A stretch of 64,000 nucleotides of DNA, from positions 46,562 through 110,561 of the IMG/VR virus record IMGVR_UViG_2563367173_000002. The stretch is one strand, 5' to 3'. Shown in pieces: positions 5,863 to 62,514 of this stretch (positions within the stretch are counted from its first letter, which is position 1; every line of letters begins with the position of its first letter). The position numbers were made by a program, and so were the translations under genes. This DNA comes from a virus (lineage: Duplodnaviria > Caudoviricetes). Below the pieces are notes generated by a model that was not told where the DNA came from, did no database searches, and worked only from the letters and a program-made list of their open reading frames with translations.

Positions 5863-5895
5863 AATATTCCTCCTTAAATTTTGCTTTGAAACAGA

Positions 5896-6618
5896 TTATT
5901 TATTGTCTAGCCAATCTTTATATTGTCGAATAAGTTCTGTATACAATTCTTCGTCATTCATGTTCTCCATATCTTTAACTGAAATGAATCCAGTATTATC
6001 ACACTTTCTACCTGGCATGTTATCTAAAGAACGTAGATAAGTAAATGATTCATTTCCAATTCCAACAAATTGAACAAACATATTATATTCAGATAATTCT
6101 CTTATAATTTTATCTGTTTCACTCTGATCTGAATTCGCTCCATCTGTAATAAAAATTATAAATGCAGGTATATCATTTAAACTAGTTTTGTTATAATATT
6201 TGACTATATCTCTCAATACTGGCGCATATTCTGTTCCTCCCATACACATGCCAGATTTGACCATAATATTTTTAACATAATCTTCATAATTATTAGTAGT
6301 TACTGATTTTAGTTTCTTTTTTTCGTTAGAAAACAACCATGATTCTAATTCACCATTATCATCAAACCGTAAAGCAATTGGAAGCAGTCTTGTAATAGTT
6401 CTTTGTATAGCCCCACTACAAAATAGTTTATCCATACTTCCAGAATAATCCATAGCAAGTGCTACTTTCGCGATATGCTTGGATAAATTTACTTTACCTT
6501 CTTTTGATAAATTCACCAAAACCTTATCTAAATTATCTTTTGATTTTGACAAATTGATTATTACACTCTTTTGAGCATTGTCAACTTCCTTGTTGAAAAA
6601 CTTTCCTAATAATCCCAT
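5896..6618 (-). CDS. vWA domain protein (TerF/tellurium-stress-associated vWA type)
   Basis: MIDAS motif DYSGS, GGTEYAP, FITDG, QFVGIG, LDN...DNTGF; likely start MGLLG. Confidence 0.8.
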   Translation of the reverse strand: MGLLGKFFNKEVDNAQKSVIINLSKSKDNLDKVLVNLSKEGKVNLSKHIAKVALAMDYSGSMDKLFCSGAIQRTITRLLPIALRFDDNGELESWLFSNEKKKLKSVTTNNYEDYVKNIMVKSGMCMGGTEYAPVLRDIVKYYNKTSLNDIPAFIIFITDGANSDQSETDKIIRELSEYNMFVQFVGIGNESFTYLRSLDNMPGRKCDNTGFISVKDMENMNDEELYTELIRQYKDWLDNK

Positions 6619-6736
6619 AATAAGAATCCTTTCTGATGTATTTATTTTATAATATCTATAATAATAAAGTGCCAAATTTAATAAGGTCTGACACAATGAC
6701 CTCTAAAAATAGCTTTAAAATCTCGATTTCATGTCT

Positions 6737-6784
6737 ATACCATATATAGCAATCGCTTGTATAGTCAAGCACCATATATGGTAT
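6737..6784 (-). promoter_or_regulatory. tandem NrdR-box-like operators overlapping a promoter
   Basis: ATACCATATATAGCAA (6737) and GCACCATATATGGTAT (6769) are 32 bp apart and resemble acaCwAtATaTwGtgt; - strand TTGACT-18-TATGGT overlaps them. Confidence 0.55.
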
Positions 6785-6788
6785 ATTT

Positions 6789-7691
6789 TTATTGTTCAGA
6801 CACTATCTTTTTGAACATTTCATCTACAGAATCCAATAAATCATATCTCCTATTAAAATCAGCAGTAGAACTTCTTGCAAATTTCTGTTCAACCATATCA
6901 ATGTAATAAGTCATTGAACCGTCATCCCCCATATAGAATTCATCCCACTCTTCCTGACTCATTAATCGCTGAACTTCAAGCTGTTCAATAGCAAGATTAT
7001 CAAAACTCACTACTTTGAAACGCTCAATGATTCCACCAAGATTTTCTTTCAGCCACATTTGCTTAATAATGATATTTTCGTGATCCTCACTATACCATTC
7101 ACCACCACGCCTTAACTGCTTATATCCAAGGATAAGCATCTTCAAATTCTTATCAGATAACATTTCTACGTCTGAAGGCTTGAGAATACCGTTAATCACA
7201 TGTATAACTGCATTTGGATATTGCTGAATTAGTGATATAAATTCATCTGTTGGATTTACAAGTGACACACCAAGACCATATATCAATTTTTCATCAACCA
7301 ACTTCTTAATCAATTCCTGTTTCTGCTCAAAGTGTTGCTGGTTTACGGTCATATTCACAATGACTTTTCTATCCTTTAGCTTATGTAAAAACGGAATCAA
7401 ATCTGGATGACTTGTTGCATCACCACCACCAAGCGCAACCTCCTGATATGGATGCAAAGTCTCGATAAACTTTTGATTCAGAATATCACCATGCTTACCA
7501 TTTTTTGTGCTACCTTCATGGCAGAATTTGCAGCCCATATCACAATAATTACTTATCTTGATATCCATATTCTCTGCAAACTCAGGAATAAATTCATCAT
7601 CTTCTGTCTCTCTTATTTTGGTTCCGTCTGAAAATATGCGTGTACGCATATTCCCATTCTTATAAATTCCCAACAGATTCATTTTTATCAT
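6789..7691 (-). CDS. radical SAM protein
   Basis: CDMGCKFC (CxxxCxxC), ALGGGD, TVN; no obvious Cys-rich SPASM tail. Confidence 0.85.
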   Translation of the reverse strand: MIKMNLLGIYKNGNMRTRIFSDGTKIRETEDDEFIPEFAENMDIKISNYCDMGCKFCHEGSTKNGKHGDILNQKFIETLHPYQEVALGGGDATSHPDLIPFLHKLKDRKVIVNMTVNQQHFEQKQELIKKLVDEKLIYGLGVSLVNPTDEFISLIQQYPNAVIHVINGILKPSDVEMLSDKNLKMLILGYKQLRRGGEWYSEDHENIIIKQMWLKENLGGIIERFKVVSFDNLAIEQLEVQRLMSQEEWDEFYMGDDGSMTYYIDMVEQKFARSSTADFNRRYDLLDSVDEMFKKIVSEQ

Positions 7692-7701
7692 CCTTTCTTA
7701 A

Positions 7702-8115
7702 TTAGCAATAACCATATTCACCAAATGCAACAATTTTATCACCATTTTTGGAAGTGTATCTCTGTACAAATGTTTCTAAATCGCCATCATGCATATATTG
7801 GTCATACGTCTTTGCGTCTTCATCAATAATGTCATTCTCTTTTGCATATTTAGTATAATATTTCTGTTTTGTATCCTCAGACAAATCATTCCAATCTTTC
7901 TGAAAATCGTCTTTATTTTCTTCATAATCTTCTTGTGCCATTTTTTTATCATGTTCACTTAATTTTGTTGCAGATATAAAATTTTCTTCTCCATATTCAT
8001 GAAATAATACTTCTCCTCTTTTCCAAGCCTCAAATTCCTCTTCACTGCACATAGTAAGTGAATGTGTGCTGCTACTATTTGTTTCAAATACTCCACGCCT
8101 TATTTGTCTCTTCAT
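7702..8115 (-). CDS. FETNSSS-motif protein 3
   Basis: N-terminus MKRQIRRGVFETNSSSTHSL after GGAGG RBS. Confidence 0.75.
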   Translation of the reverse strand: MKRQIRRGVFETNSSSTHSLTMCSEEEFEAWKRGEVLFHEYGEENFISATKLSEHDKKMAQEDYEENKDDFQKDWNDLSEDTKQKYYTKYAKENDIIDEDAKTYDQYMHDGDLETFVQRYTSKNGDKIVAFGEYGYC

Positions 8116-8131
8116 AAAATAAATTTCCTCC

Positions 8132-13539: not shown

Positions 13540-13556
13540 TCTCTCAATCCTCTCTT

Positions 13557-13916: not shown

Positions 13917-13956
13917 AACTTCTTTTTCTCCTCCTATGAAATGCAAGTTTTAAGAC

Positions 13957-14295: not shown

Positions 14296-14315
14296 TCGTC
14301 TATATCCTCTACAAT

Positions 14316-14801: not shown

Positions 14802-14823
14802 CCCCTTTCTTGAAACGTGGGTT

Positions 14824-16623
14824 TTAAGACTTTTTCACTACAACCAACGAATCCTTCTGAACTGTTGTAATTGCATTTGATAATTCATCATTTCTTACTT
14901 CTATCTGTTGCTCGGTTTTACCCTCTGAATTATATCTACCACGCATAGCAGCACCAACAGCATATAAATAACTAAAACCACCTGCATTACCTACTGGCTG
15001 TGACAACAGAGCCATTGCAATCGCATCTGCATCATACACCCTATTTCCTTGTCTAAATTGCTTACCAAAATTTATTTCTCCAATCCCACCAACTAATATC
15101 GGTTTATGATTACCACAAACAGAATCTAGTCCGCTTGTGGGATTGATAAAATTTATCATTTTCTCATCTATGCAAATATATGTATCATCATACTGAGCCT
15201 TATACAAATGCTCAATTAATAGTGAAATTGCTGTTGTTACAATTGAATTTCCTGATTGTTTATACCCTTGGGTATCAGACATTCCAACTGCTTTACATCT
15301 CTCAAAATCTTCATCATCAAATCCCATAAGTCTATGAGCTTCTTTAGGTGTAAGCTTTCTTACAATTCTAAGATTATCTCTTTCAACTTTTGGCTCAGTA
15401 TTACCACCACCACAAGTATGCATCGCAGGAGCAATACCATCTTCACTATATATTCCCCGTGACTGTTCATGCATCCTTTGGAATTTCTCACTGCACAAAT
15501 CAGCAATATGTATCGGCTCATTTGTTGTGTCCAATATCTGTTTAGGTTGCTTATAATCAGTAGCAAGTAATGCGTCCATAATTGAATCTTTTTGATATAC
15601 TAAATCTCTTTGCCCGATAGTCCTAAATTCTGGTTTTGTTGTATCAACAATATTTTTTTCAAATTTCGGATCGGTAATTTGTAGTCTTCTTTGCACTTCA
15701 TCCGACAAAAAATATTTATCTAAAACTTCGTCATCCGTTTCTAATAAATCTTTTAATCGAATTCCATTATCAAATGGTTGAGGGAATTTAAACTGTTCTG
15801 TATCAATTTCTTTAAGAATGGAAACGCAGAAAATTCTATTTCGGTTCTGTGGTATGCCTGTGTTTTTTGCATTGATTGTTTGAAAATATGAGTTATATCC
15901 CAAGTTGTCCAATCTATCAATCCAATCATTAAAACTATCAATATATTTTTTAGACACAAGAGCATCTACATTTTCCATAAGTAAATATTTTGGCAAATTA
16001 TTGTTTTCATTTGCCTTTACAAGCAGTCTTTCTACTTCATACAACAACCCTGAACGAGTTGACTTAATATTATTACTTCCGCAACAAGGACATTTATATC
16101 TTGTATCAACATTTAATTTTGATGGGTCATATTCCATACCACAATCTTGACAAGTCCACTTTAACCCTTCCTGTTTTCCTGCAATCGATAAATCAGTACA
16201 CGGCGTTGAATATGTAAGCATATCACAATCCGACAGTTCTTTAATCTGCATTATATCTCCCAAATTATGTGAAATATGATCAGCCAACCAGTATTTTTCT
16301 ATGCCTTTCGTTTTGTCTTTCTTTTTTGATAACTTTTCCCAATCATATGGTTCATCTTTTTTAAAATCAAATCCTAATCTTTTCTTAGATAACTCATTCA
16401 CCATTTCATCCTTGGAAGGATAATTACCATATTCATTAATCATTTCATTAGTTAATCCACAATGAATAGCAGCATAACTAACAATAACCTCTTTATCTAA
16501 ATCTGCTGTTGCGACAACCTCTGCGTCAAACAGATTTGTATTATTAATTCCTTTTATCTGTGCACCAATTCCACTACACAACTCAATAACTTTTAAACTA
16601 AATCTTTTATTATTACTTTCCAA
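14824..16623 (-). CDS. C5-cytosine DNA methyltransferase with Zn-ribbon insert and extra TRD-like C-terminal repeats
   Basis: ELCSGIG, TPCTDLS, CxxC...CPCC insert, ENV, QNRNR, RKLTP, GNS. Confidence 0.9.
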   Translation of the reverse strand: MESNNKRFSLKVIELCSGIGAQIKGINNTNLFDAEVVATADLDKEVIVSYAAIHCGLTNEMINEYGNYPSKDEMVNELSKKRLGFDFKKDEPYDWEKLSKKKDKTKGIEKYWLADHISHNLGDIMQIKELSDCDMLTYSTPCTDLSIAGKQEGLKWTCQDCGMEYDPSKLNVDTRYKCPCCGSNNIKSTRSGLLYEVERLLVKANENNNLPKYLLMENVDALVSKKYIDSFNDWIDRLDNLGYNSYFQTINAKNTGIPQNRNRIFCVSILKEIDTEQFKFPQPFDNGIRLKDLLETDDEVLDKYFLSDEVQRRLQITDPKFEKNIVDTTKPEFRTIGQRDLVYQKDSIMDALLATDYKQPKQILDTTNEPIHIADLCSEKFQRMHEQSRGIYSEDGIAPAMHTCGGGNTEPKVERDNLRIVRKLTPKEAHRLMGFDDEDFERCKAVGMSDTQGYKQSGNSIVTTAISLLIEHLYKAQYDDTYICIDEKMINFINPTSGLDSVCGNHKPILVGGIGEINFGKQFRQGNRVYDADAIAMALLSQPVGNAGGFSYLYAVGAAMRGRYNSEGKTEQQIEVRNDELSNAITTVQKDSLVVVKKS

Positions 16624-16962
16624 ATGCCTTATCTACAAGGCGTTGCAACGCTAATTTATCCGGAATTACTTGTTATATCCTTTCTCTAATTTGTTATTTG
16701 TGAATCTTTCGTGGGTTCATGACTCCCTATGAAAGATTTAATTCATCGGATAAAATATCCGTTTATATATCAAAAATTCTGATATAATGGCTGAAAACCA
16801 CAATCACTATCCTATTGTTCTACACTTTAGGAATACTTTTCTTGGAATTACCGACTTGATTAAGTCATTAAGAATTGATATACTTAGATTTGTCAAGACG
16901 GTTATCCGTTTTGTGTTGGATAAGAACTCTGCTCACTCGCCAAAGTTACCAGAGTTCTTATT

Positions 16963-17689: not shown

Positions 17690-17727
17690 TTTACCACCTC
17701 ATCTTCACTTGAAACCTTCGTTTTATT

Positions 17728-18003
17728 TCAATTCAATAGTTCAAAAATTTCATTCCAATCTTGATATTCACTTAATTTTTCCTGTGGGATCAAAAGCTTA
17801 TATTCCTTTTCTATTTCTTCTTGTGAGCCATATCCGTTGTTACTAGAACAGCTGCCAATTTCATATTGATTATGTCTTTCAATTTGCTTAAAAACAATGG
17901 TAAAACTACTATTGTCCACAGACTGTCCCATCGGTGTTGCAAAACTATCTATTTGAATAATAGAATTTTTATTCTTGTGTCTGTAAATATCACCTAATTT
18001 CAT
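17728..18003 (-). CDS. hypothetical protein
   Basis: 91-aa ORF with GGAGG RBS. Confidence 0.55.
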   Translation of the reverse strand: MKLGDIYRHKNKNSIIQIDSFATPMGQSVDNSSFTIVFKQIERHNQYEIGSCSSNNGYGSQEEIEKEYKLLIPQEKLSEYQDWNEIFELLN

Positions 18004-18815: not shown

Positions 18816-18841
18816 CTGTCCATCTCCTTGAAACGGAAATT

Positions 18842-19231
18842 TTAATGTGTAGTTATTTCATATAATAATCCATTATACGGTTTTATCTCCCACCCTTGAC
18901 TCCACGCATCAAATATCATTTTATCAACAGGAACACGAATACCAGTTTTCAACTCTGCATAATAGGAGTTATCATCTAAAAATCCATGTTCATTACCAAC
19001 ATACCAACCATCAAGCAATAATTCCTGTAAATGTGGTGAACAACATACGCAACACGCCTCTTTAATATTTCTTTGATCACATCCGCTTTTACAATCTCTT
19101 TCTGCACATTCAGGAATAAAAATTTTAGACAAATTATACGGTGTAATCTTTTCAATTTTATCAATGTCATAAGCAAAAAATGTTATCTCATGATGAGTTT
19201 GCTTTATATGAAATTCCTGATTGATATTCAT
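18842..19231 (-). CDS. hypothetical Cys-rich protein
   Basis: 129-aa ORF with AAGGAG RBS. Confidence 0.55.
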   Translation of the reverse strand: MNINQEFHIKQTHHEITFFAYDIDKIEKITPYNLSKIFIPECAERDCKSGCDQRNIKEACCVCCSPHLQELLLDGWYVGNEHGFLDDNSYYAELKTGIRVPVDKMIFDAWSQGWEIKPYNGLLYEITTH

Positions 19232-19264
19232 ATACTTTCTCCTTCCTTAAAACTCGTGTTTCAA

Positions 19265-21295: not shown

Positions 21296-22066
21296 TTAAG
21301 ATTGAAGGATGAAAAACGGACGCACGCCCCCGCCATACCAGCGGCAACCGCCGTAGTCCACACTGCCATCGGAGTCAACGTACTGAACACAGTGGGCATC
21401 GTTTCTCTTCGGTGTCTGATTAGGATTAGCAAGCCAATACCAATTATCAATCAATGGAATACTTTCACCAAACTTCATAAGCAACTGAATATTTGGGATT
21501 GCTAAAATATCACCTTCAACACTTCCATAATCTTTAAATCCATCCATAGAAGTCAAATCAAGAGAAATCGGAACAAGTTTATCTCCAAATTCTTTCTTTA
21601 AATCCTCTGCCAACTCACTATTAATAAGATCTCTCCGCACATAAGATTCTGCATAATTATTTGTTTTACCAAAGTCTGACTTTTTAAGAATCCCATTCAT
21701 AAAATAATATGTACGTTTCCCATCCTGAACACTTGTCCAATAATGCCCACAAATGAATTTTAACTGTTTTCTCCACTCATTCATATATTCTTCAACTGCA
21801 TTTCTAAAATCTTGTTTGTATCTCTCTGGGTCTTTTTCGTACCAATCAGGCACAATATCCTGATCGACCTTATATCTCCAGTCTTTTACATTGGTCATTT
21901 TATCATTATTTTTAGGAATTAACTCTGCTCTTACAAATGTTTTAGATGCATTCATGTGAGTATCTTCAATTCCAAGACTTTCCAATAAATCCGAATGGCT
22001 TTCATTTCCTTCTGGTGCTAAAACCACCTTGTTCTTCAAAATAATTCCACTCTTAAAATTACACAT
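21296..22066 (-). CDS. DGR target protein with C-terminal CLec-like variable region
   Basis: Ends WYWLANP...VQYVDSDGSVDYGGCRWYGGGVRPFFIL and contains the VR. Confidence 0.9.
   Translation of the reverse strand: MCNFKSGIILKNKVVLAPEGNESHSDLLESLGIEDTHMNASKTFVRAELIPKNNDKMTNVKDWRYKVDQDIVPDWYEKDPERYKQDFRNAVEEYMNEWRKQLKFICGHYWTSVQDGKRTYYFMNGILKKSDFGKTNNYAESYVRRDLINSELAEDLKKEFGDKLVPISLDLTSMDGFKDYGSVEGDILAIPNIQLLMKFGESIPLIDNWYWLANPNQTPKRNDAHCVQYVDSDGSVDYGGCRWYGGGVRPFFILQS
21315..21397 (-). repeat. DGR variable repeat (VR)
   Basis: 16 mismatches to TR, all at TR adenines (14 A>G, 1 A>C, 1 A>T), followed by invariant GGCGTGCGTCCGTT. Confidence 0.95.
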
Positions 22067-22143
22067 AACTTATCATCTCTCCTTTTCATTTTTGTGATAT
22101 ATATTTCTCTTTTCTTACTTGAAAGTTTCAATTCATTATAATA

Positions 22144-22557: not shown

Positions 22558-22764
22558 TTACATATAATATCTTGAAGCAAATTCCCAAGCTGTCATATTT
22601 TTATAATCAACAGTTTGTTTCGTCTCTCCATTTTCACATCCGTTTTGTTCTACTTTTTCTGTAGAAATAATTTGATTATAATATGAAGAATTTTCATTAC
22701 AACATATTTCTTCATCAGTTAATATGTTATTTGTTTTAGACCAATAACAATCTCTGCAGTTCAT
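22558..22764 (-). CDS. small Cys-containing hypothetical protein
   Basis: MNCRDC...; AAGGAG RBS. Confidence 0.55.
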   Translation of the reverse strand: MNCRDCYWSKTNNILTDEEICCNENSSYYNQIISTEKVEQNGCENGETKQTVDYKNMTAWEFASRYYM

Positions 22765-22799
22765 CTTAAAATCTCCTTAGATAAAATCAAATTTTTATC

Positions 22800-23133: not shown

Positions 23134-23475
23134 TAATGTTTTTTATGGGATAGAATTCTCTATCCCATATTTCATGAAATGAATTTTTCAAAGACTTATT
23201 CATTCTTCTATTGTTTTCATACCATCCTTAATACAATCAACCACTATATATTCTGCTTTTTTTAAACTCACTCCCTTCTCTTTCGATATTCTTTTTGCCA
23301 AATATTTACTTGTTGCAACAAGCGGTGTCAACAAATCAAGATTTTTTCCTACCACTTTTACTTTCGCTTTTTCATCTTTTAAAGTTGCAAATCTCATTTT
23401 CAAAATATATTTCTCCTTTTGCTTTTCAATTTTCCGTATGTGTAGTATAATACTGTCAAATATTATTGAAAGGTC

Positions 23476-24168
23476 GTGATTTTTATGTCTAGTTTTCAAT
23501 GTCCATTTTGTTCCAATTTTATGTCTGTAGATTTTGGAACCTTTGCGAAAAAATATGTATCTTTTGCTGAATATCCTTTTGAAAGCAATGGAGATCCCAG
23601 AAATCGTACTCCAAATGAGTCATGCGTTGAAATTGATTTTTATAAATGTCCAAATTGTGAAAAATACTCAATTGTGGCTAATGGTTTAGGTACTAATGTC
23701 AATAATATAAGTTCATCATTGCAGCCAAAATCATCAGCCAAACAATTTCCTGATTACATACCAGAAGCAATCCGACAAGATTATGAAGAAGCATGTGCTA
23801 TCGTAAATCTTAGTCCAAAAGCATCTGCAACTCTTTCTCGCCGTTGCTTACAAGGTATAATTCGTGACTTTTGGGGAATTAGCAAAGCACGTCTTATTGA
23901 TGAAATAAACGAACTTCAAAATAAAATTCCAGCACAACAATGGAAGGTTATTGATGGAATTCGCCGGATTGGTAATATTGGCGCCCACATGGAAAAAGAC
24001 ATTAATCTTATTGTTGATATTGACCCAGATGAGGCACAAAAACTTATTAAACTTATAGAGCATTTATTGGATCAATGGTATATCAACCGCCATGAACAAG
24101 AACTTCTTTATACTGATATAATTGACATTGATAAAGCAAAACAATCTGAACGAAAGAAAACTGAGTAG
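23476..24168 (+). CDS. DUF4145 (HEPN-like) domain protein with N-terminal Zn ribbon
   Basis: DYEEAC...SPKASATLSRRCLQ...IRRIGNIGAH. Confidence 0.8.
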   Translation: MIFMSSFQCPFCSNFMSVDFGTFAKKYVSFAEYPFESNGDPRNRTPNESCVEIDFYKCPNCEKYSIVANGLGTNVNNISSSLQPKSSAKQFPDYIPEAIRQDYEEACAIVNLSPKASATLSRRCLQGIIRDFWGISKARLIDEINELQNKIPAQQWKVIDGIRRIGNIGAHMEKDINLIVDIDPDEAQKLIKLIEHLLDQWYINRHEQELLYTDIIDIDKAKQSERKKTE

Positions 24169-52268: not shown

Positions 52269-52631
52269 TATTTTATCCTTATATTTTTCCTTTTTAAATA
52301 TTTTAGATTTTTTTTAATATCTGGAATCTTATTTTCTCTAAGGTATTTTCTTATTATACTTGTTTGCAATTCCCTATGAATAACATAGTTTTTGTTCTCC
52401 TTTTGTTCCTTTGAACCAGCCTTTCATTGCTAAAACTCACCAAAAACATCTTGATCTCCATCACACCATTGATATTCTTTTCCCTTATACTTTTCTTCTA
52501 AAAACTTCTCAATTTCATCATCTGAAATATTTTCTGGCAATTCAATAATATGTTTAATCGCAACTTGAATCACTCTTTTCCCATTTTTATTAAACATTCA
52601 AGACCTCCACTTAAAAACAGCATTTTATTGT

Positions 52632-54594: not shown

Positions 54595-54621
54595 AATCTA
54601 CCTCCACTTGAAAGCAACATT

Positions 54622-56532
54622 TTATTGCTCTTTTAACTCTTTCATTATTTTATTCCAACCTCTTTTTGAAAAACCAAATGCCACCTTAAAATCATAATAA
54701 GCATCTTTTAATTTATCATCAGAAGAATAAGAATTATTATGTTCAAATGGTGTACCTACACTTGCAACTGCATCTGTTGAATCTAATAGTGGATTTCCGT
54801 AATATGAACGCCCATCAACATTCCATCCTTTTACAATTTTAGGAACCTCTTGATTAGTTAATAATTCTAATTGTTCCCATGTTTGTGGAGCAATAACAAA
54901 CCACATATTACATACACAGCCAGTTACATTACAAAGCCATTTCCATCCATCTCTTTTTCTAGTACATCCAATGATTCCATCAGATGATAACATATGTCCA
55001 AAAGGATAATCATCATTTCTTGTAATATAAATATTTATACTGCCATCACTTCTTCTCCATCCACAACTCAATTCTGACTTAATTCCATTTTCAATTTCTT
55101 CTTCGTATTTCATCAACATACGATAAATAAATTCTTTATTAGAAAGAAGCGATTGTTGATACCATTCTTTTATTTTTTCTGTTTTGCCATAATCAACCCA
55201 CGCTTGATAGATTTTTTCTTTTATATACTCTGCAAGCTGCATTCTCGCTTCTTTATACACTTGTAATCTCATTCTCTTTTCAGTTCCAATAAATTCAGGT
55301 ATATATGATTCATTTTCTTTGTCCATTAAACATGATATATTATTTGATTTAAAAATTGTAGTGGGATCAAATACAAACCCCTCTCCCCATAAATCCACCA
55401 TTAATTGATTATCGTTTGTAAAATATCCTGTTTCCTTATAGTTAATATTCTTTTTATTATGAAAATTAAACTCTTCTGCATAATCACCAGATAATATTTT
55501 TTGATTATCAAAACTAATATCAACATTATTATGACTAACAATAAGATTACTTTTCCCAATAACCATTAACTTATGGTTTTTTATCTTTAACTGATTCTCT
55601 GGCAAGAAACTGTCAAGATAATGCAACGGCAATTCAACATCCTTGTTTGTATATTTTAATACAATCAACAACATTGAAATTACAATAGGCATAAAAACTT
55701 CTATTCCTAAATTATATAAATCTAACTTTTCATCATTTATTTCATATTTAGAAGCATAGCCTTTATAATCACGCTTGGAATAATTAAATATATAATCATA
55801 AGGAAATATACCATCGACTTTTTGTTCAGTCCAACTTCCATTTCTGGAATTTTTATGTTGTCCAATATACGCCTCATCAACTCTATCATTAACAGATATA
55901 ATATTCCCATTACTCTTCAAGAAAAACGCAAAGAAACAATCCGCTGAATTACTTGCACTAATAAAACAAAAATAAATTCCATCTTGTGCATTTTCTATAT
56001 TAATAAGACATTCGGCTAAAGTATTAAAAATATACAATTTTGTACTTACATTCTGTACATTGTTAATTTTTCCACCCTTCATAAACAGATCCACATTACA
56101 TCTATTTATTGACTCTATGACTTTTTCAATACTATTAAACAGTTGTTTTATTTGCCCATCATCTTTACCAATCAATTTTCCATTTGTTATTTTTAAATAT
56201 ATATGATTAAGTCTACCAATAAAATCATTTTCTGCTTCAGTAACGATAGGTGTATTGAAAAGTTCATACATATCTTTTTCTGCCCTATATGCATCTGGGT
56301 TACTTAACACATCCCATACTGTAATCTTTGTTTCTTTTAATAAGTTCTCAAATTGTATTTTTGTATAAATTACTGCAAGCATACCTGTTTCATCATACTC
56401 GGACAATAACATTTCAATCAATTTTCCAATTTGATGAAACCCATATGCATTAGACAACAAATTAAAAGATGTTTGCTCCCTATCATATCTACTATAAATA
56501 GCCCATTTTTCTAACACATCCATATATGTCAT
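54622..56532 (-). CDS. large hypothetical protein
   Basis: 636-aa ORF with GAGGTG RBS; no recognisable motif. Confidence 0.7.
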   Translation of the reverse strand: MTYMDVLEKWAIYSRYDREQTSFNLLSNAYGFHQIGKLIEMLLSEYDETGMLAVIYTKIQFENLLKETKITVWDVLSNPDAYRAEKDMYELFNTPIVTEAENDFIGRLNHIYLKITNGKLIGKDDGQIKQLFNSIEKVIESINRCNVDLFMKGGKINNVQNVSTKLYIFNTLAECLINIENAQDGIYFCFISASNSADCFFAFFLKSNGNIISVNDRVDEAYIGQHKNSRNGSWTEQKVDGIFPYDYIFNYSKRDYKGYASKYEINDEKLDLYNLGIEVFMPIVISMLLIVLKYTNKDVELPLHYLDSFLPENQLKIKNHKLMVIGKSNLIVSHNNVDISFDNQKILSGDYAEEFNFHNKKNINYKETGYFTNDNQLMVDLWGEGFVFDPTTIFKSNNISCLMDKENESYIPEFIGTEKRMRLQVYKEARMQLAEYIKEKIYQAWVDYGKTEKIKEWYQQSLLSNKEFIYRMLMKYEEEIENGIKSELSCGWRRSDGSINIYITRNDDYPFGHMLSSDGIIGCTRKRDGWKWLCNVTGCVCNMWFVIAPQTWEQLELLTNQEVPKIVKGWNVDGRSYYGNPLLDSTDAVASVGTPFEHNNSYSSDDKLKDAYYDFKVAFGFSKRGWNKIMKELKEQ

Positions 56533-56572
56533 TAAATTTTATCACCTCACTTATGTCGATGAAAACCGGATT

Positions 56573-57139
56573 TCAATTTTCATGTATATATTGCTCCCAT
56601 TTAGCAGAATAATCATCCATCAATTTTTTATAACTATATGTTGAATCTGCAATGATAAAAACCAAAGCAGTAAGTATTACAGGTATAAGCAAACTAATAT
56701 AGTTATATAACTTCCACTCGCTAATTGATAATATATATGCTAAATAAAATGTTAAACTCGTTGCTATACTTAATAAGACCATTTCATGATTTATTAACCA
56801 AGCAATCAACTTATAGTGTTTACATATTCCTTCTCTAACTATATTAGTTCCTAATTCAAATTGCATATCTAATTTTCCAAAACTTTTTAAAAACGAAGTA
56901 ATATGAGCACTTGCTAATCTATAATATGATATACGAGCAGTAAAAGGAATAATTAGCAAAAACGGAATCAAGCAAATCCAAGCACTTATGGAATTCATAT
57001 CCATCGCTAATGCAACTCCTAAAACAGCTAATACAGATGTAAACGAAAATGTAAGTAAATTATTTCTCATAGTATCAAAAAATTCGAGTCTTTTTATTAA
57101 TTTATCGTATTCTTTATCCGTTATTTGTATTTCTCTCAT
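56573..57139 (-). CDS. four-TM membrane protein
   Basis: Hydrophobic segments; bounded by dyad sites at 56560 and 57154. Confidence 0.6.
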   Translation of the reverse strand: MREIQITDKEYDKLIKRLEFFDTMRNNLLTFSFTSVLAVLGVALAMDMNSISAWICLIPFLLIIPFTARISYYRLASAHITSFLKSFGKLDMQFELGTNIVREGICKHYKLIAWLINHEMVLLSIATSLTFYLAYILSISEWKLYNYISLLIPVILTALVFIIADSTYSYKKLMDDYSAKWEQYIHEN

Positions 57140-57166
57140 TTATTTCCTCCCAATGAAAATCGAATT

Positions 57167-59796
57167 TTAACTGTATAATAATTCTTTCATTTCTTTTTTC
57201 ATCTCATCTATTTTTCTTGCCATTTGCCTATATTTCCGAAGTTTATCATTAAAATCTTTTGTAATAAATGGTTTTGAACTTATATTAGTAATCCTAAAAA
57301 ACGATGGTCTTAATTTATATGTTAAATAAATATATTTAAGATCATCCGTTATTCTTAACTCTGAATGTGTACATTTTCCATCAACTACATGTGCTTTAAA
57401 TGTACAAAATATAGGAAGAATAGGATACCCATTTTTGTAGATAGTTTTTGAACACGGTTTATATTCTATGTATAATTCTTTCATTTAACACCTCTTGTTA
57501 AGCTTATTGAAATCAGACATTTATTGCCTATTTTGTCTCCATCTTTCAGCATTTTCTATAATATCTTTGAATTTTTCATAACACTCATCGCAAACATCAT
57601 CTAATATAAATTCATTATCAACTCCATGTTTTATTTCAATAGAATACACCTGTTCATAGTCTCCAATTTTACGCTTACAACAATCACAATATAATACTTT
57701 CATTTAATCGTCACCTTTCTTTCGACTGACTATCTTATGTAAATCTCCATCAGATATTCTTTCTACTTTTCCACTATCAAATTTAACCACTCGCCCAACT
57801 CCACAGCTTGCAATGATAGTTCCCTTACCTTCAAAAAGTCTTTTTACTCTATCTCCAGTTTTTAAAGATTCCCATTCTTTACAATCCATAACAAGTCCTT
57901 CCACTACAGATTATTACACTTACACCAATATTCCACATCATGATTTCCCATCACATATTCATATCCAAATTTCTTAATAGCTATTAACCCCCTATTATAT
58001 TGAGGATCTTTGGTTTTACCACTTTTATTTGCTATTCTATTAATTTCTTCTATTCTTTTACGCCCCAAATTCTCTTCCATATTAATTCACCTATCCAATC
58101 TGCTGTCTTAACAACGGAATATACACAAATTCCCACACAAAATCTGTAAACTTCTTCATAAAGTCCTTACCTGCGTTATATCCACAAGCATTATCTATCT
58201 GTATTTCTATTGGACTTCTTTTATCTGGTCTTTTTAAACCTTTCAATCGATAAAATTCATTTACAAACTCATCATTATCCAAACATATACCACACACGCT
58301 GATAAAATCATTTTCTAATTCTTCTACTGTCATAAAGCGACTCTCCCATCTCCTGAAGATAATGCCACAAATCCACCCCATCAACACTACACATATCAGT
58401 TTTATACCATTCTCCACGGAATACAAAATAGAAAAAACTTCTATTTGTTCTCACAGTAAACCCAAATTTTGTCTTCTGATCATTAATATTTTGCTCGAAA
58501 TTATCCCAATAATCATTTTTACGGTTGATTTTGGGCGGCTGTTTTAGTTTGATGCATTTTACTTTATCTCCGTCTTTTGTGTATAGAATCATTCATACCA
58601 CCTCACAATTTATCAATGTTATCTCCGCTTTCAGCGTTCAACCAATCTAACCATTCCATTGTGTTTTTGGGATATTCCTCTGGATTTTCTACAATCAGAG
58701 TAAGAAAATGTGCCAATCTGAGTTTATCCAAACTTCTTATAATTTGCGCTCTATTGTTAATCCTTCCATATTCATCTCTCATTCTGTTACTTCCCTTTCT
58801 CTACCAAGTAAAATATAAAGTACATTTATTGACTCTGTTATCGACTTTATATTTGCAGCAATTTCAACCTTTTTAGAAAAATTAGCAGGTGAATCACTTT
58901 CTCTTATTTTATCCATTTTCTTCACTTCTTTATTTCTGTCATTTTCCAAACTTTCTATCTGAGATTTAACTAAATTCTGCCATGTCATAATTTTTTCCTC
59001 CAATAAAATCAAGTTTTCAACTGCAAATAATATTCTAACTGCTCAATCTCTGTCTTAACTTTCTTCATTTCCAGCAACGCATTTATCGCATTATCTTCAT
59101 ATTTCATGGTTAATACTGATATTCTGATGCACACTTATCGCATACACTCAAATTGTCCTCTTTAATGTAAGAACCACATAATTTACAATGATACGCTTTA
59201 TGTTTATTATTATTTAATGATAAACATCCTTCTTCTAATAAATTAAATTTCTCAACAGCACTATCTAAATCACTAAATAGGTTGACATCCTTATCTCCTT
59301 CTTTTCCAACTTTATACATGGCTCTTAAAGGACTTAAATGTACCTCAACATCAATTCTGTTACCAGTCCTACCATTATACGCAAGTCGCTCTTTCTTTAA
59401 TGGTTCCTTTTTGATTTCGTCTATACTTATTTTCATACATTATTCCCTCCACTTGAAACTTAGATTTCATTCATATAAAATAATAACCTTTTGTTTTTGT
59501 TCATCACATGTAATATTAATTATTTTTTTATCATATAGCCCAATTCTGTGTTTGATTTCATCATATACTTTTTTACGACTATTATATTTTTTATACTCTT
59601 CATCATCATAAAACAGAAAATCTAATTCACCAAAATAAGTGATTTTAAATCTTCCATTAATAAAACTTTTTGTAATAGCTATAAGTTCATCAAAATCTAT
59701 CTGTCGCACATCAACTTTTACATCAACTGAAAATTTATATCTATCTATTGGAATACCATTTTCCCAAACAAAGAAATAACTATCTTCCAATCTCAT
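57167..59796 (-). other. run of about ten small hypothetical genes
   Basis: ORFs at 57167, 57521, 57704, 58091, 58308, 58779, 59110 and 59467 with RBSs; several end at the dyad motif. Confidence 0.6.
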
Positions 59797-60053: not shown

Positions 60054-60380
60054 TCAGAAAAATGCCTTAACATATGCCAATGTTTTCTCCAACAGTTCTT
60101 CTGGCATCTTCTCTACAAACTGAATATTCCTACTGATTACATCCAAGCACTTCATATGTTCCGTCAATATTACGCCTGTCGTTTTTGTTCTGTTATCTAA
60201 AGGGATATGCAACGGAAATTTATTGCTTGTATTTGTGATCGGACATACCACAGCAAATTTAGTCCTCATAAAGAACTGCTCATTACTTATGACTACTCCG
60301 GGTCTCCTTCCTGCCTGCTCATGTCCTGATTGTGGACTAAAATCCAAGAATATAATATCTCCTTGCTTCGGATTATACAT
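60054..60380 (-). CDS. mazF: MazF/PemK toxin
   Basis: GHEQAGRRP.VVIS...CPIT. Confidence 0.9.
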   Translation of the reverse strand: MYNPKQGDIIFLDFSPQSGHEQAGRRPGVVISNEQFFMRTKFAVVCPITNTSNKFPLHIPLDNRTKTTGVILTEHMKCLDVISRNIQFVEKMPEELLEKTLAYVKAFF

Positions 60381-60625
60381 TACCACACTTCCTTCCCAAC
60401 AGGAGAACCCCAATCAAATTCCTCAGCTTTATATTCTCCATCATAATCTTTGAATATATCTTCCAGTGTCAATTCCTTTTTCTCTTTAACTTTCGTAATC
60501 ACAATATTATCATCAACCCTGTTAAGTTCCACGAGATCATTTTCCATCATCCCTAATGCTTCAAGAAACGCTTTTGGTATTCTTATCCCCTGTGAATTTC
60601 CCCATTTTTGAATTGTTGCTTGCAT
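60380..60625 (-). CDS. mazE: MazE/AbrB antitoxin
   Basis: KWGNSQGIRIPK...DWG.PVG.EVW. Confidence 0.9.
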   Translation of the reverse strand: MQATIQKWGNSQGIRIPKAFLEALGMMENDLVELNRVDDNIVITKVKEKKELTLEDIFKDYDGEYKAEEFDWGSPVGKEVW

Positions 60626-60648
60626 AAAATCATCTCCTTCCTTATAAT

Positions 60649-60690
60649 TAGTATATACAATAGTATATACAATAGTATATACATTGTCAA
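60649..60690 (-). promoter_or_regulatory. mazEF promoter/operator with three tandem TAGTATATACA repeats
   Basis: 12-bp period with palindromic GTATATAC core; - strand TTGACA at 60685-60690. Confidence 0.7.
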
Positions 60691-61040
60691 TGACCTTATA
60701 CTAAAACATCATAAAACCTATAAATCAGGCGATAGCCTTTGACAACTACCGCCCGTATGTATAAGACATGTTCTACTCGTCTACGATTTCCATATCATAT
60801 ACATCATCTTCCCAGTTATAATCTGCGCACCAAGCCTTTTCTAATGCCTCCTCTTCACTATTTGCCTCAATTTCAGCATAACCGCTTTTACTTGCTCTAA
60901 CTGTATACTTCATACTTCTATCAATCCTTTCTTTGATTTTCCATAACGCACTTCACAGGGGATTTATGGTATTACCCCTTACAGAACAAGCTAAGAACTG
61001 TTGCGGATGGATTCAGTTGTCAAGGTTCAATCGTAATGGG

Positions 61041-61226
61041 CACGGTAGACGCATGCTTTATGAACAATTTGTAAACACATAGCTCTCTGATAAAAAATAG
61101 AGCTTATTTTTGCTTAATTCTAAAATTTGTAAATTTTTAAAACATAATAAAATTGCTTATTTTTGTGCTATTTTAATAAAAAATCAAGACATTTTTTGTT
61201 AAAAACAGAGACATGCGTCTACCGTG
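61041..61226. mobile_element. 186-bp MITE
   Basis: 15-bp perfect TIR CACGGTAGACGCATG/CATGCGTCTACCGTG flanked by 5-bp direct repeat ATGGG. Confidence 0.85.
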
Positions 61227-61345
61227 ATGGGATTTTTCCGTTGACTATTTCTAAAGAATTGATATAATAGAAGTGTCAACGTGTGGTTTACCATACGGAG
61301 AGCTGAATGGCGGTTTCTAGTTTTCCAGGCTGAGAACCGCTATTC

Positions 61346-61501
61346 TTATTTTTTCTTATCCGCTTCTCTTTCAACCAGAATCATTCTTACTAGATTTGAA
61401 AAGTTAGTGCCTTTTTCGGCAGCTTCTTTTTCTAAAGATTCCTCCAGTTCTTTTGAGATATAGACAGATTTTCTTACTCCATTTTGCTTTGGTTTCGCCA
61501 T
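61346..61501 (-). CDS. ribbon-helix-helix (CopG-like) protein
   Basis: MAKPKQNGVRKSVYISKELEESLEKEAAEKGTNFSNLVRMIL. Confidence 0.65.
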   Translation of the reverse strand: MAKPKQNGVRKSVYISKELEESLEKEAAEKGTNFSNLVRMILVEREADKKK

Positions 61502-61625
61502 CTGTCATCCTCCTTACAGTAAATATCATATCGTTTTAACAGGTACTTGTCAACATCTTTTTTGGGTTATTTTATGTTAATCACATAAAAAGCTGTCAAT
61601 GTTTCCACTAACGACTTCCCGTTTC

Positions 61626-62207
61626 CTATGCTTCACCTGCATATTCACCATAATATTTTTGTCTCATTTCTTCAGCAAATTTTCCAGCCTCATCCAATTG
61701 CTCTAATGAAAATCTACCAAGAATTGTATTCTTTCCATCTACTTGCAATTGTACTATCCATGTATTACCGCTTTTAGACACATTTCTATATCCAGATTTA
61801 TTATTTTTGTTTTTACCTTTTCTGTTTTGAGTATTAGATTCATTCTCAACAATTCTCAAATTACATTTCCGATTATCCAATGTATTATGATTAATATGAT
61901 CAACCTTATTTTTTCCAAAATAATTGAGTATAAATTTATGAAGTAAAATGCATTTATATTTTCCATTTCCATTTTGACTTACTCCAAGATAAATACAAGT
62001 TTTAACATAAAATAAATTTCTGACTTTATTATAATCAGAAAACCATGTATAACCAAAGTTTTTTACAACTCTATCAAAATCGTCAAGATCAATAATTGTC
62101 CATAGATTTTCTTTTTTTCTACGTCTTAACTCAATTTTTACAATTTTGTTTTCCTCATCAATAATATAATTGTTTCCTTTCTTTCTTGCCATCAGTATTT
62201 CCTCCAT
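61626..62207 (-). CDS. HNH homing endonuclease with AP2-like C-terminus
   Basis: LHKFI...VDHINHNTLDNRKCNLR...N; SGYRNV...YYGEYA. Confidence 0.85.
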   Translation of the reverse strand: MEEILMARKKGNNYIIDEENKIVKIELRRRKKENLWTIIDLDDFDRVVKNFGYTWFSDYNKVRNLFYVKTCIYLGVSQNGNGKYKCILLHKFILNYFGKNKVDHINHNTLDNRKCNLRIVENESNTQNRKGKNKNNKSGYRNVSKSGNTWIVQLQVDGKNTILGRFSLEQLDEAGKFAEEMRQKYYGEYAGEA

Positions 62208-62283
62208 TCATAAAAGTGTATATATTACACTTCTACAAATGGATTTTTGTTTTCACGATTTTATACTAAAGGCAATAGAACAA

Positions 62284-62475
62284 TCATTTCAACTGTAAAC
62301 AAAATTCCAATTCAGCAACTTCTGTTTTCAATTTTTTAATTTCCAATAGTGAACTGATTGCATTATCCTCATATGTTGCTGAATCCATATTTTTTATGTC
62401 AATTCTAAAATATTCCTGCTGTCGCTCTAATTCTCTTTTCTTAGCAGCAAGCCTCTGTTCCATAACTTCTATCAT
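62284..62475 (-). CDS. small coiled-coil protein (3' fragment duplicated at about 59010-59107)
   Basis: YEDNAISSLLEIKKLKTEVAELEFCLQLK. Confidence 0.6.
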   Translation of the reverse strand: MIEVMEQRLAAKKRELERQQEYFRIDIKNMDSATYEDNAISSLLEIKKLKTEVAELEFCLQLK

Positions 62476-62514
62476 ATAAACCTCCTATCTCAGGCAATGA
62501 AATAATCCTATTAA

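Follow-up and report, generated by a model that had tools for sequence, protein, structure and literature searches.

A recurrent short palindrome in the junctions between phage genes

Given that a short inverted repeat recurs between the genes of a large phage of a gut bacterium, we asked whether this word is a real element, whether it marks the places where genes are gained and lost, and whether it belongs to an integron-like cassette system. The locus was first examined in a window of 64,000 nucleotides, i.e., positions 46,562 to 110,561 of the IMG/VR record IMGVR_UViG_2563367173_000002 (Duplodnaviria; Caudoviricetes). A sequence-only reading of this window had proposed that gene cassettes are delimited by the dyad TRAAA-N6-WTTYA, possibly shuffled by a tyrosine recombinase encoded in the same window. 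To test this, we counted the dyad in the window, in the whole 110,561-bp record (here G000), in related phage genomes (numbered from G001), and on the chromosome of the likely host.

In the window, TRAAA-N6-WTTYA gave 42 strand matches, corresponding to 26 distinct sites, while 100 dinucleotide shuffles gave 13.6 +/- 4.2 matches (largest 28) and 0 of 100 reached 42. By our own ORF-based gene model, 21 of the 26 sites lie in junctions and 5 in coding sequence (2414, 2948, 31848, 40016, and 55717), and all 19 junction sites named in the sequence-only reading were found where it had placed them. We then restricted the pattern to the palindromic (strict) class T[AG]AAA-Nk-TTT[CT]A, which occurs 22 times in the whole record at k=6, compared to 1-9 times at the other spacer lengths in the range k=0-14. 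Of these 22 sites, 20 are junctional, while 19% of bases are non-coding by the same definition (binomial P 5.8e-13). An unbiased scan of all 5-mer arms and spacings 0-12 ranked this dyad first in G000, as well as in G001 and G003, while in G007 the top dyad was TAAAA-N6-TTTTA (46 against 2.9). The observation therefore held, and is stronger than the sequence-only reading had known.

The same 5-N6-5 dyad was enriched in every relative tested that carries this DnaE-type polymerase, including the Bacillus phages PBC2, FADO, and PK-3 and a Clostridioides phage. Compared to a reversed-pattern control, the counts were 18-26 against 2-5 for G001-G005, 51 against 14 for G012, 62 against 1 for G013, 25 against 5 for pCD1602_4, 25 against 2 for PBC2, 34 against 2 for FADO, and 29 against 3 for PK-3. 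In G001, there were 19 sites at N6 against 0-5 at other spacings. The junction location was also reproduced, with 39 of 49 sites in G007 by our gene model and, in PBC2, 20 of 22 examined sites in junctions of the depositors' own annotation. On the likely host, 30 perfect sites were found on the 6.35-Mb chromosome contig and 12 on the 0.24-Mb phage contig. Of the first 20 chromosomal sites, 10 lie in long open frames and none shows the stop-dyad-SD layout, indicating that the dyad is not a feature of the host chromosome.

Table 1. Junction dyads and the tyrosine recombinase of the window (positions are those of the window; dyads are written as arm-spacer-arm; X4, X5, and X14 are runs in which variant contigs were found)
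Position	Strand	Feature	Sequence	Context
5887..5902	.	Dyad, loose class	TAAAT-AATCTG-TTTCA (coding strand)	In the junction before gene 5272..5862; one mismatch to the strict pattern
6716..6731	.	Dyad	TGAAA-TCGAGA-TTTTA (coding strand)	After gene 6789..7691; a promoter-like stretch follows by eye
13937..13952	.	Dyad	TAAAA-CTTGCA-TTTCA	4 nt after an upstream stop codon; the SD follows after 1 nt
14811..14826	.	Dyad	TAAAA-CCCACG-TTTCA	First three bases are the stop codon of the C5-methylase gene 14824..16623; the orthologue of the downstream gene in G009 lacks the dyad
16730..16745	.	Dyad, loose class	TGAAT-TAAATC-TTTCA	
17710..17725	.	Dyad	TAAAA-CGAAGG-TTTCA	2 nt after the stop codon of 17728..18003
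18829..18844	.	Dyad	TAAAA-TTTCCG-TTTCA	First three bases are the stop codon of 18842..19231; the SD abuts it
19248..19263	.	Dyad	TGAAA-CACGAG-TTTTA	The SD abuts it, before gene 18842..19231
22120..22135	.	Dyad, loose class	TGAAT-TGAAAC-TTTCA	Upstream of gene 21296..22066
22782..22797	.	Dyad	TAAAA-ATTTGA-TTTTA	In a 5' leader, between a TATAAT-like box and the SD of 22558..22764
23175..23190	.	Dyad	TGAAA-AATTCA-TTTCA	Between the stop codon of 23200..23499 and a terminator-like hairpin; no gene follows on that strand
27121..27136	.	Dyad	TGAAA-GCCGCA-TTTCA	Before gene 26837..27112
52612..52627	.	Dyad	TAAAA-TGCTGT-TTTTA	A variant contig in X5 diverges exactly at its 3' edge on the coding strand
54609..54624	.	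Dyad	TAAAA-TGTTGC-TTTCA	First three bases are the stop codon of 54622..56532; a variant contig in X4 diverges 5 nt from it
56560..56575	.	Dyad	TGAAA-TCCGGT-TTTCA	First three bases are the stop codon of 56573..57139
57154..57169	.	Dyad	TAAAA-TTCGAT-TTTCA	First three bases are the stop codon of 57167..57484
57508..57523	.	Dyad, loose class	TAAAT-GTCTGA-TTTCA	First three bases are the stop codon of 57521..57703
59004..59019	.	Dyad	TGAAA-ACTTGA-TTTTA	In X4 and X5 the 92 nt at 59009-59100 are replaced by 5 nt, which makes a new dyad from the TGAAAT at 59106-59101
59454..59469	.	Dyad	TGAAA-TCTAAG-TTTCA	First three bases are the stop codon of 59467..59796; variant contigs in X4, X5, and X14 diverge inside its upstream arm
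40660..41700	-	346-aa tyrosine-recombinase-family protein		Pfam Phage_integrase, 39.3 bits; proposed driver in the sequence-only reading; no link to the dyad was found

We next examined how the dyads are placed relative to the flanking genes. The overlap of the upstream stop codon with the first three bases of the dyad, claimed for seven sites, was confirmed for all seven (Table 1). However, this is about the one in three expected when a reading frame runs into a word beginning TAA or TGA, so it needs no special explanation. The proximity to a ribosome-binding site was also borne out: among 91 context-unique junction instances in six genomes, 71 have an SD-like word, and in 43 of these it starts 0-5 nt after the dyad. 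One-mismatch copies, which had been listed as further sites, are weak evidence, since N6 gives 110 copies (45 intergenic) while other spacings give 94-125 (23-39 intergenic). The near-match at 41751, beside the recombinase, is therefore not significant, and site 17346 did not reach one mismatch to the strict pattern. The claim that no dyad occurs in the regulatory core at 28-40 kb is nearly right, as the pattern hits 28394, 31848, 36878, and 40016, but these are loose-class or coding hits.

To distinguish between a site on double-stranded DNA and an RNA hairpin, we compared the two arms in 48 unique junction sites. Positions 2 and 15 pair as G-C in 27 sites, A-C in 9, G-T in 7, and A-T in 5, which is what independent half-sites give, and A-C mismatches outnumber G-U pairs. 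Flank and inner-spacer preferences mirror each other (W outside, Y/R inside). The 5-bp arm hairpin has a median energy of only -1.3 kcal/mol (range -2.6 to +1.4), and 7 of the 48 sites are unfolded at minimum free energy. Furthermore, the dyad can hold the SD or the start codon inside its spacer. These observations favour a site on double-stranded DNA over an RNA hairpin.

We then asked whether the dyads coincide with the boundaries at which related phages differ. Among five related genomes (G001-G005), dyad junctions carried a homology breakpoint far more often than other junctions (14/15 against 28/98 in G001), and the same direction was observed in G002-G005. The difference survived a comparison with neighbouring junctions (14/15 against 14/46 in G001) and with junction-length classes, although in G002 the neighbour control was not significant (9/12 against 18/40, P = 0.1). 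It should be noted that the breakpoint events are shared among these genomes, so only about 15 independent anchors stand behind the P values, and that most breakpoints are not at dyads (13 of 141 in G001 are). Homology ends at +16 or begins at -4 to 0 of the dyad, so that the 16-mer stays while its flanks are reassorted. Of 13 anchors present in at least 3 genomes, 8 have more than one upstream haplotype, 8 have more than one downstream haplotype, and 4 show at least 3 of the 4 gamete combinations. Variant contigs break at 52612, 54629, 59008, and 59467. Hence none of the three outcomes that had been named beforehand as counting against the sequence-only reading (no enrichment, indel breakpoints away from the sites, or an equally common motif at host chromosomal junctions) was observed.

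The interpretation of the sequence-only reading was nevertheless only partly supported: the dyad is a spacing- and junction-specific element that coincides with boundaries of gene gain, loss, and replacement, but an integron-like cassette system was not supported. The site is 16-18 bp with 5-7-bp arms, while attC sites are 57-141 bp with R''/L''/L'/R' boxes. Of 51 clean insertion/deletion entries among five genomes, 9 entries (7 distinct sites) have a strict dyad at one end and none has one at both ends, and many others are bounded by repeated ribosome-binding-site microhomology. The breakpoints lie at the outer edges of the dyad and not in the spacer. The 346-aa recombinase of the window matched no NCBIfam model, the integron-integrase models included, and had no tblastn relative in five dyad-bearing genomes (G001-G005). 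However, all five relatives tested carry 2-3 tyrosine recombinases of the Phage_integrase family, and one Xer-like protein is among only 20 proteins shared by the three deep lineages compared (C4, G001, and G007). A recombinase acting at the dyads therefore remains possible.

In such a scenario, the dyads would be crossover sites of a phage tyrosine recombinase, either Xer-like or the divergent enzyme in the window, with two arms binding the enzyme around a 6-bp overlap region. Because every spacer in a genome differs, partners would be limited to the same site in a co-infecting relative, and the result would be in-register, scar-free module exchange. The layout of inverted arms around 6 bp, as at Xer/dif sites, the lineage-specific arms (TGAAA against TAAAA), and the persistence of the identical 16-mer, spacer included, while both flanks change are consistent with this, and a "DNA breaking-rejoining enzyme" is annotated in PBC2. 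In G007, the shared Xer-like gene lies between exact dyads at 60288 and 61725, but such adjacency means little where nearly every junction has a dyad. We consider this reading unlikely, since the conserved arms are shorter than the 9-13 bp of known core arms, the breakpoints and the lack of two-sided events speak against it, a gene inserted next to a dyad in G002 has no second site, one anchor in G002 has lost the first base of its arm, so exchange does not always preserve the site, and the recombinases are generic, all below curated cut-offs. About equally doubtful is an element acting in the mRNA, as a small hairpin or protein-binding signal that would couple, enhance, repress, or process translation of the downstream cistron. 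The dyad is always transcribed and often abuts the SD, it ends 14-18 nt before the start codon in 11 of 20 junction sites in PBC2, and the stop codon lies inside the arm in 19 of 68 contexts. In addition, one-mismatch junction copies in G000 keep the SD-side arm more often than the other (about 15 against 7 by our reading of the list). On the other hand, the arms show no covariation, the hairpin is marginal and would be weaker still with TAAAA/TTTTA arms, the SD or the AUG can lie inside the "loop", some copies are followed by a terminator or a promoter rather than a gene, and TTTCA alone is not a general pre-SD word.

Slightly less likely is a promoter-type signal for an unrecognised phage transcription factor or polymerase, giving each early gene its own short-leader transcript starting at the SD. 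The density and distribution do resemble early-promoter arrays, with dyads at nearly every junction of G007 1-36 kb and a restriction to the early/accessory arm, and the dyad is anchored to the downstream gene, family-specific, and lineage-specific in its arms. However, a palindrome gives no direction, copies occur directly before terminators with no gene downstream, and there is no room for a sigma-A -10/-35 pair between the dyad and the SD. Neither Sigma70_r4 nor a T7-type polymerase was found in G001, G002, G004, or G007, although the T7-type search gave no hit in any control genome and so says little. The least likely alternative is that no dedicated reader exists and that the dyad is a passive feature, either an intrinsically bent A-tract/T-tract element or a footprint of repeated junction recombination, kept only because it is harmless in non-coding gaps. 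No binding protein was found, A4-N6-T4 would place the two tracts one helical turn apart, and many gene insertions and deletions use plain RBS microhomology without any dyad. Against this, exact spacing and arm sequence are conserved from Bacillus phages to Lachnospiraceae phages whose polymerases are about 41-47% identical, and the G/A switch at arm position 2 follows lineage. Both patterns indicate selection on a recognised sequence.

Comparable elements have been described elsewhere. The PeSLs (promoter-early stem-loops) of T4-type phages are also repeated short motifs that run from the upstream stop codon to the downstream SD, are concentrated in plastic, ORFan-rich regions next to genes that differ between close relatives, and are proposed to mediate modular shuffling by recombination between copies (PMC2839356; PMC4122927). 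However, PeSLs are about 100 bp and contain a sigma-70 promoter plus a stable, often G/C-rich terminator hairpin, both functions having been shown experimentally, while the dyad is 16-18 bp and has no promoter and only a marginal hairpin; PeSL-flanked genes also have a motif on both sides, whereas no clean insertion/deletion here has strict dyads at both ends. The stoperators of Cluster A mycobacteriophages are, like the dyads, 20-30 copies of one short word spread through a phage genome, in that case protein-binding, mostly not at promoters and with a lineage-specific consensus (PMC6550527; PMC9283540), and copy number and density are similar here. They are, however, asymmetric 13-bp sites bound by a monomeric immunity repressor and oriented with transcription, while the dyad is palindromic and no repressor is linked to it. 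Integron attC/attI sites share with the dyads the position at the 3' end of promoterless genes arranged in one direction, the possible stop-codon overlap, and a tyrosine recombinase encoded nearby, but attC is recombined as a folded single strand. Xer/dif-type sites have inverted arms around a 6-bp central region, but dif arms are about 11 bp with one site per replicon, while here there are 20-60 sites per genome, each with a different spacer. Finally, the start-associated sequences (SAS/ESAS) of Cluster K mycobacteriophages are likewise conserved words of unknown function immediately upstream of many start codons, but the SAS is an asymmetric 13-mer that contains the RBS itself, while the dyad is palindromic and separate from the SD.

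Together, these results led us to a tentative reading, to which we assign a probability of about 0.4. In this view, the element is a 16-18-bp palindromic site on double-stranded DNA, W-T[G/A]AAA-N6-TTT[C/T]A-W, read by an unidentified dimeric phage-encoded DNA-binding protein, one half-site per subunit, with half-sites about one helical turn apart. The comparisons directly show the spacing-specific excess, the junction location, the recurrence across relatives, and the coincidence with exchange boundaries, whereas the binding protein, the regulatory function, and the mechanism of exchange are inferred. None of the shared proteins scanned has a recognisable DNA-binding domain (of 10 proteins, 7 had no family and the 3 hits were not DNA-binding, and a further scan added nothing). 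Our preferred function, global control of the early/accessory gene arm by blocking or insulating transcription at gene boundaries in the manner of mycobacteriophage stoperators, rests purely on analogy. No strict dyad was found at the putative lysogeny switch around the Xre-type gene 36998..37426, whereas stoperator systems do have an operator at the early promoter, and the dyad abuts the downstream SD more regularly than the upstream stop codon, which also fits a 5' signal of the downstream gene. The sites occupy the only free DNA of the tightly packed early/accessory gene arm, after a stop codon and just ahead of the next ribosome-binding site, with a few ahead of a promoter or a terminator. 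The dyad is a family trait of large low-GC Firmicutes phages that carry a DnaE-type polymerase. The same word, plus the adjoining SD, recurs at many otherwise unrelated junctions and is the seam at which neighbouring genes are exchanged between related phages, and, as a Sak4-like annealase and an exonuclease are encoded, we infer that this exchange works by short-homology recombination rather than by integron-type site-specific recombination.

The dyad was studied in G000, the 110,561-bp virus record whose last 64 kb form the window, where nearly all genes lie on the minus strand. The window encodes DNA methylases, a vWA-TerF protein, a radical-SAM enzyme, RNA-repair enzymes, a reverse transcriptase, a LAGLIDADG endonuclease, GmrSD-like proteins and a divergent tyrosine recombinase, in addition to IS110 and IS66 transposases located in a stretch of higher GC. 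The left arm of the record is a replication module with NrdD, a ligase, a RecD-like helicase, a DnaE-type polymerase, an exonuclease, a DnaB-like helicase, and a Sak4-like annealase. The IS66 transposase was 100% identical to chromosomal copies in a Eubacterium plexicaudatum ASF492 record, which points to that host, and contig C4 of that genome (G006; 238,228 bp) contains G000 at 99.95% identity. The two ends of C4 are a 9.4-kb direct repeat and not host flanks, so that prophage att sites were rejected, and the element is a unit of about 229 kb at about 30% GC, not a prophage with visible host flanks. This suggests a jumbo phage or episome with a long terminal repeat, or a circular molecule assembled with overlap. 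Searches of GenBank phages with window positions 52001-60000 and 13001-21000 gave no useful DNA match (only one 96-nt hit), PHROG scans of 20 proteins flanked by dyads assigned a family to only four (an HNH endonuclease, one family of unknown function, a GTP-binding domain, and a phosphatase), and Rfam and tRNA scans of the window found nothing. The coordinates of individual features are listed below.

Features of the window, of the record G000, of contig C4, and of the related genome G001, with the observations made at each.
Sequence	Position	Strand	Feature and observation
C4 (loci L139-L150)	152473-216417		Stretch corresponding to the window
C4	1-9378 and 228,920-238,228		Terminal direct repeat, 98.7% identity
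C4	about 24.9, 31.1 and 32.4 kb		tRNA-Lys (twice) and tRNA-Tyr
C4	25455 and 37794		Dyads directly before a terminator-like hairpin
Window	22782		Dyad in a 5' leader, after a promoter-like box
Window	22879-23133	+	84-aa DUF1413 protein on the opposite strand, with its own promoter-like box, bracketed by dyads at 22782 and 23175; the domain call of the sequence-only reading is confirmed (67 bits)
Window	23175		Dyad directly before a terminator-like hairpin
Window	25655-26731	-	LAGLIDADG_2 homing-endonuclease domain flanked by an N-terminal HTH (TnsD-like/HTH_23) and a C-terminal resolvase-type HTH_7, an unusual architecture; no relative in G001-G005
Window	28707-29237	-	176-aa protein, weak ParB-like match (E = 0.02)
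Window	29252-31429	-	725-aa protein, sub-threshold GmrSD_N/DUF262 match
Window	36794, 36878, 36956		One-mismatch dyad look-alikes upstream of 36998-37426, not above chance
Window	36998-37426	+	Xre/Cro-CI-type HTH protein on the strand opposite to almost all other genes, in a divergent intergenic region; plausible lysogeny or immunity switch
Window	40660..41700		Divergent tyrosine recombinase, 346 aa
Window	42842-43852 and 46482-48101		IS110-family and IS66-family transposases, in a 42-46% GC stretch inside the 30% GC phage
Window	52612, 54629, 59467		Contigs of a variant phage diverge
Window	59009-59100		Replaced by 5 nt in contigs of a variant phage, creating a new dyad
Window	52414, 54257, 60004, 60050		Other divergence points, not at dyads
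Window	54622..56532		636-aa protein; no relatives found in viral contigs
Window	about 60626-60675		Three tandem copies of a 12-nt word (tgtatatactat) just upstream of the SD of gene 60380..60625; looks like an operator or promoter array unrelated to the dyad
Window	63638-63734 and 63792-63898		Very deep short contigs in RNA run X1, depths in the hundreds to thousands against about 27-83 for their neighbours; one is flanked by sequencing-adapter letters
G000	about 20257-20286		Promoter-like cassette (outside the window)
G001	86625-86705 (L027 6625-6705)		Promoter-like cassette
G001	128687-128760 (L029 8687-8760)		Promoter-like cassette
G001	83322		Dyad directly before a terminator-like hairpin
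G001	95848/96466		Example of a single-gene insertion/deletion bounded by near-identical ribosome-binding regions

The sequence-only reading had proposed that a recurrent dyad, TRAAA-N6-WTTYA, marks gene junctions, and this observation held. The pattern gave 42 strand matches (26 sites) in the window, compared to 13.6 +/- 4.2 in shuffled sequences. The better control is internal, as TRAAA-Nk-TTTYA was counted 22 times at k=6 and 1-9 times at every other k from 0 to 14. Twenty of these 22 sites were junctional, while 19% of bases are non-coding (P = 5.8e-13). All 19 junction sites and all seven stop-codon overlaps that had been named were confirmed. Furthermore, a scan without any prior of every 5-mer arm at every spacing from 0 to 12 ranked TGAAA-N6-TTTCA first in G000, and in G001 and G003, two of the five related genomes described below. 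One-mismatch copies, however, were at chance level, including the copy beside the recombinase that had been pointed out in the same reading, and we therefore rejected them as evidence.

To see how far the element reaches, relatives were identified through the polymerase and dyads were counted against a reversed-pattern control. In G001-G005 (five related genomes with 83% polymerase identity), 18-26 dyads were found in each, against 2-5 for the control, and most of these sites were perfect TGAAA-N6-TTTCA. Among the further relatives, the counts were 51 against 14 (G012), 62 against 1 (G013), 8 against 1 (G014), 25 against 5 for Clostridioides phage pCD1602_4, 25 against 2 for Bacillus phage PBC2, 34 against 2 for Bacillus phage FADO, and 29 against 3 for Bacillus phage PK-3. 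The more distant relative G007 (47% polymerase identity) had only one TGAAA site, but 46 TAAAA-N6-TTTTA sites against 2.9 at other spacings, and these fill nearly every junction of its first 36 kb. Five loci of 49% GC, whose polymerase is 28-29% identical, had none. For PBC2, we used the depositors' own annotation and examined 22 of the 25 sites, of which 20 lie in annotated junctions; four supply the upstream stop codon, six abut it, and eleven end 14-18 nt before the next start codon. On the host chromosome contig, 30 perfect sites were found in 6.35 Mb, compared to 12 on the 0.24-Mb phage contig. Of the first 20 of these 30, ten lie in long open frames and none has the junction layout, so that the chromosomal sites look like chance or coding occurrences, and a host regulator was rejected as an explanation. 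The dyad is therefore a trait of this phage family, not of the host and not of composition.

We next analyzed 48 unique junction 16-mers from six genomes. The consensus was W-T[G>A]AAA-(Y..R)-TTT[C>T]A-W, with a spacer that was unconstrained and not palindromic, and no conservation extended beyond the 16-18-bp element other than stop-codon and SD signals. Positions 2 and 15 combined as G-C 27, A-C 9, G-T 7, and A-T 5, which is the product of their separate frequencies. There was thus no pairing covariation, mismatches were as common as wobble pairs, and the arm hairpin was worth a median of only -1.3 kcal/mol. The dyad can overlap the stop codon, hold the SD in its spacer (four G007 sites), or hold the start codon (a site in G002), and it can also sit in a 5' leader, directly before a terminator-like hairpin, or 7-8 nt before a promoter-like -35 box. 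TTTCA as a general pre-SD enhancer was tested and rejected. Some dyads are followed by a repeated promoter-like cassette of about 70-96 nt containing two palindromic boxes of the ACACTATATATAGTG type about 32 bp apart. These resemble NrdR boxes, and phage nucleotide-metabolism or replication genes may therefore be under host NrdR control.

Mirror-symmetric preferences without pairing, with half-sites one helical turn apart, are what a dimeric protein on double-stranded DNA produces, and we infer such a protein from sequence alone. No binder was found among the shared proteins that were scanned. The 176-aa protein at 28707..29237 gave a weak RNA_pol_Rpb2_1 hit (21 bits, below cut-off), which we first took as a hint of a phage polymerase, but since a PDB sequence search instead gave only the weak ParB-like match, this reading was dropped. 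This protein and the neighbouring 725-aa protein are two of the few accessory proteins shared with G001-G005 (26-37% identity), and in G001 the gene for the large protein starts inside a dyad and has acquired the NrdR-box-like promoter cassette. A 243-aa conserved protein was also considered as a candidate binder; however, its Atlas neighbours were viral hypothetical proteins and one cluster had 10% ThyX, suggesting that it is probably an enzyme. The deep short contigs of run X1 near the end of the window may represent an abundant small RNA, although neither Rfam nor ARAGORN gave a match.

To study the relation to gene exchange, G001-G005 were compared pairwise. In G001, junctions with a dyad carried a homology breakpoint in 14 of 15 cases, compared to 28 of 98 other junctions in the same span (P = 2e-6), and the pattern was similar in the other four genomes. 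When the comparison was restricted to the two nearest non-dyad junctions on each side, these gave 14 of 46, with P values across genomes from 3e-5 to 0.1, and the difference persisted within junction-length classes. It should be noted that the events are shared between genomes, so the independent sample is about 15 anchors, and that most breakpoints are elsewhere, with 13 of 141 in G001 located at dyads. Breakpoints lay at +16 or at -4 to 0, with homology typically stopping one base after the dyad or starting 0-4 bases before it, i.e., the whole 16-mer, spacer included, is kept while the flanks change. Of 13 anchors present in at least three genomes, eight had several upstream haplotypes, eight had several downstream haplotypes, and four showed at least three of the four possible combinations. 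Within the window, contigs of a variant phage in three RNA-library runs diverged at dyads as well as at other points. Since all four runs used here consisted of contigs, which cannot show transcript starts, ends, or levels and in which stretches without cover say nothing, only the places of divergence were used. A comparison of G000 with the related genome G009 gave a similar partial picture, while for G007 no relative closer than 63% polymerase identity was found with which the breakpoint test could be repeated in a second lineage.

The sequence-only reading had interpreted the dyads as integron-like gene cassettes, possibly driven by the window's tyrosine recombinase, and an integron-like cassette system was not supported. 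An attC site is about 57-141 bp with inverse-core and core boxes (RYYYAAC ... GTTRRRY), far longer than the dyad. Gain or loss of an integron cassette is bounded by a site at each end, with the crossover inside the site. Among 51 clean insertion/deletion entries, none had strict dyads at both ends and nine entries (seven sites) had one, the breakpoints lay at the edges of the dyad (+16 or -4 to 0), and a gene inserted next to a dyad in G002 had no second site. Many of these entries, including many single-gene insertions and deletions between G001-G005, were bounded instead by a repeated GGAGAATAAATATG-type ribosome-binding region, and the RBS itself therefore serves as recombination microhomology. 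The window's recombinase matched no NCBIfam family and had no tblastn relative in G001-G005, while the recombinases of the relatives scored 41-44 bits on TIGR02249, an integron-integrase model with a cut-off of 265 bits. The wider idea of a recombinase is nevertheless not dead, since all five relatives tested encode 2-3 tyrosine recombinases and one Xer-like protein is among the 20 proteins shared by C4, G001, and G007. An Xer/dif-type site has two arms of about 11 bp binding a recombinase around a 6-8-bp overlap region; the dyad has the 6-bp spacing, with arms conserved over only 5-7 bp.

The closest published parallels are the PeSLs of T4-type phages and the stoperators of Cluster A mycobacteriophages, and the dyad fails defining features of both. 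Like PeSLs, it is enriched at the boundaries of genes that differ between close relatives. However, there is no sigma-70-type -35/-10 pair within the dyad, which abuts the SD and of which a few copies merely precede a promoter-like stretch, and the marginal arm hairpin is not a stable stem-loop of the terminator or attenuator type. Like stoperators, it is a single, putatively protein-binding word present in many copies across the genome (20-62 per genome), mostly between a stop codon and an SD and away from promoters, but the site is palindromic and not an asymmetric site oriented with transcription. A stoperator system also has a cognate repressor that binds the word and blocks elongation, and for the dyad no binder was identified.

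The association of the dyad with module boundaries is shown by these comparisons, whereas its molecular role is not, and the dimeric binder, its binding to the word, and any block of transcript elongation are inferred. Our preferred reading, to which we would give a probability of about 0.4, is a dimer-bound DNA site that controls or insulates the early gene arm and doubles as a short-homology recombination seam. A recombinase crossover site and an RNA or translation signal both seem unlikely and are equally ranked, a promoter-type signal is slightly less likely still, and a merely passive feature is the least likely of these. In the crossover reading, the dyads would be addressable crossover sites of a conserved phage recombinase, with the arms binding the enzyme and the unique 6-bp spacer of each site restricting exchange to the same junction in a co-infecting relative. 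These large phages would then run a programmed, in-register, gene-by-gene reassortment system, a "viral integron without attC", which would explain why the identical 16-mer survives while both flanks are swapped.

The dyad is apparently undescribed, as literature searches for the literal motif found nothing relevant, and a term search of one genome paper from the same subfamily found only "terminator" in a protein name. A single 16-bp palindrome punctuates the early/accessory genes of a whole family of 125-230-kb Firmicutes phages, from a mouse-gut Lachnospiraceae phage to cultured Bacillus subtilis phages. Since it is also present in FADO, which grows on a laboratory B. subtilis strain, both its reader protein and its role in recombination are directly testable. 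In practice, the motif is a cheap marker for this phage family and for module boundaries in metagenomic contigs. The dyad marks where genes are exchanged between relatives, and it therefore bears on the old question of how phage mosaicism manages to hit gene boundaries so precisely, i.e., whether this reflects selection on random events or built-in linker sequences.
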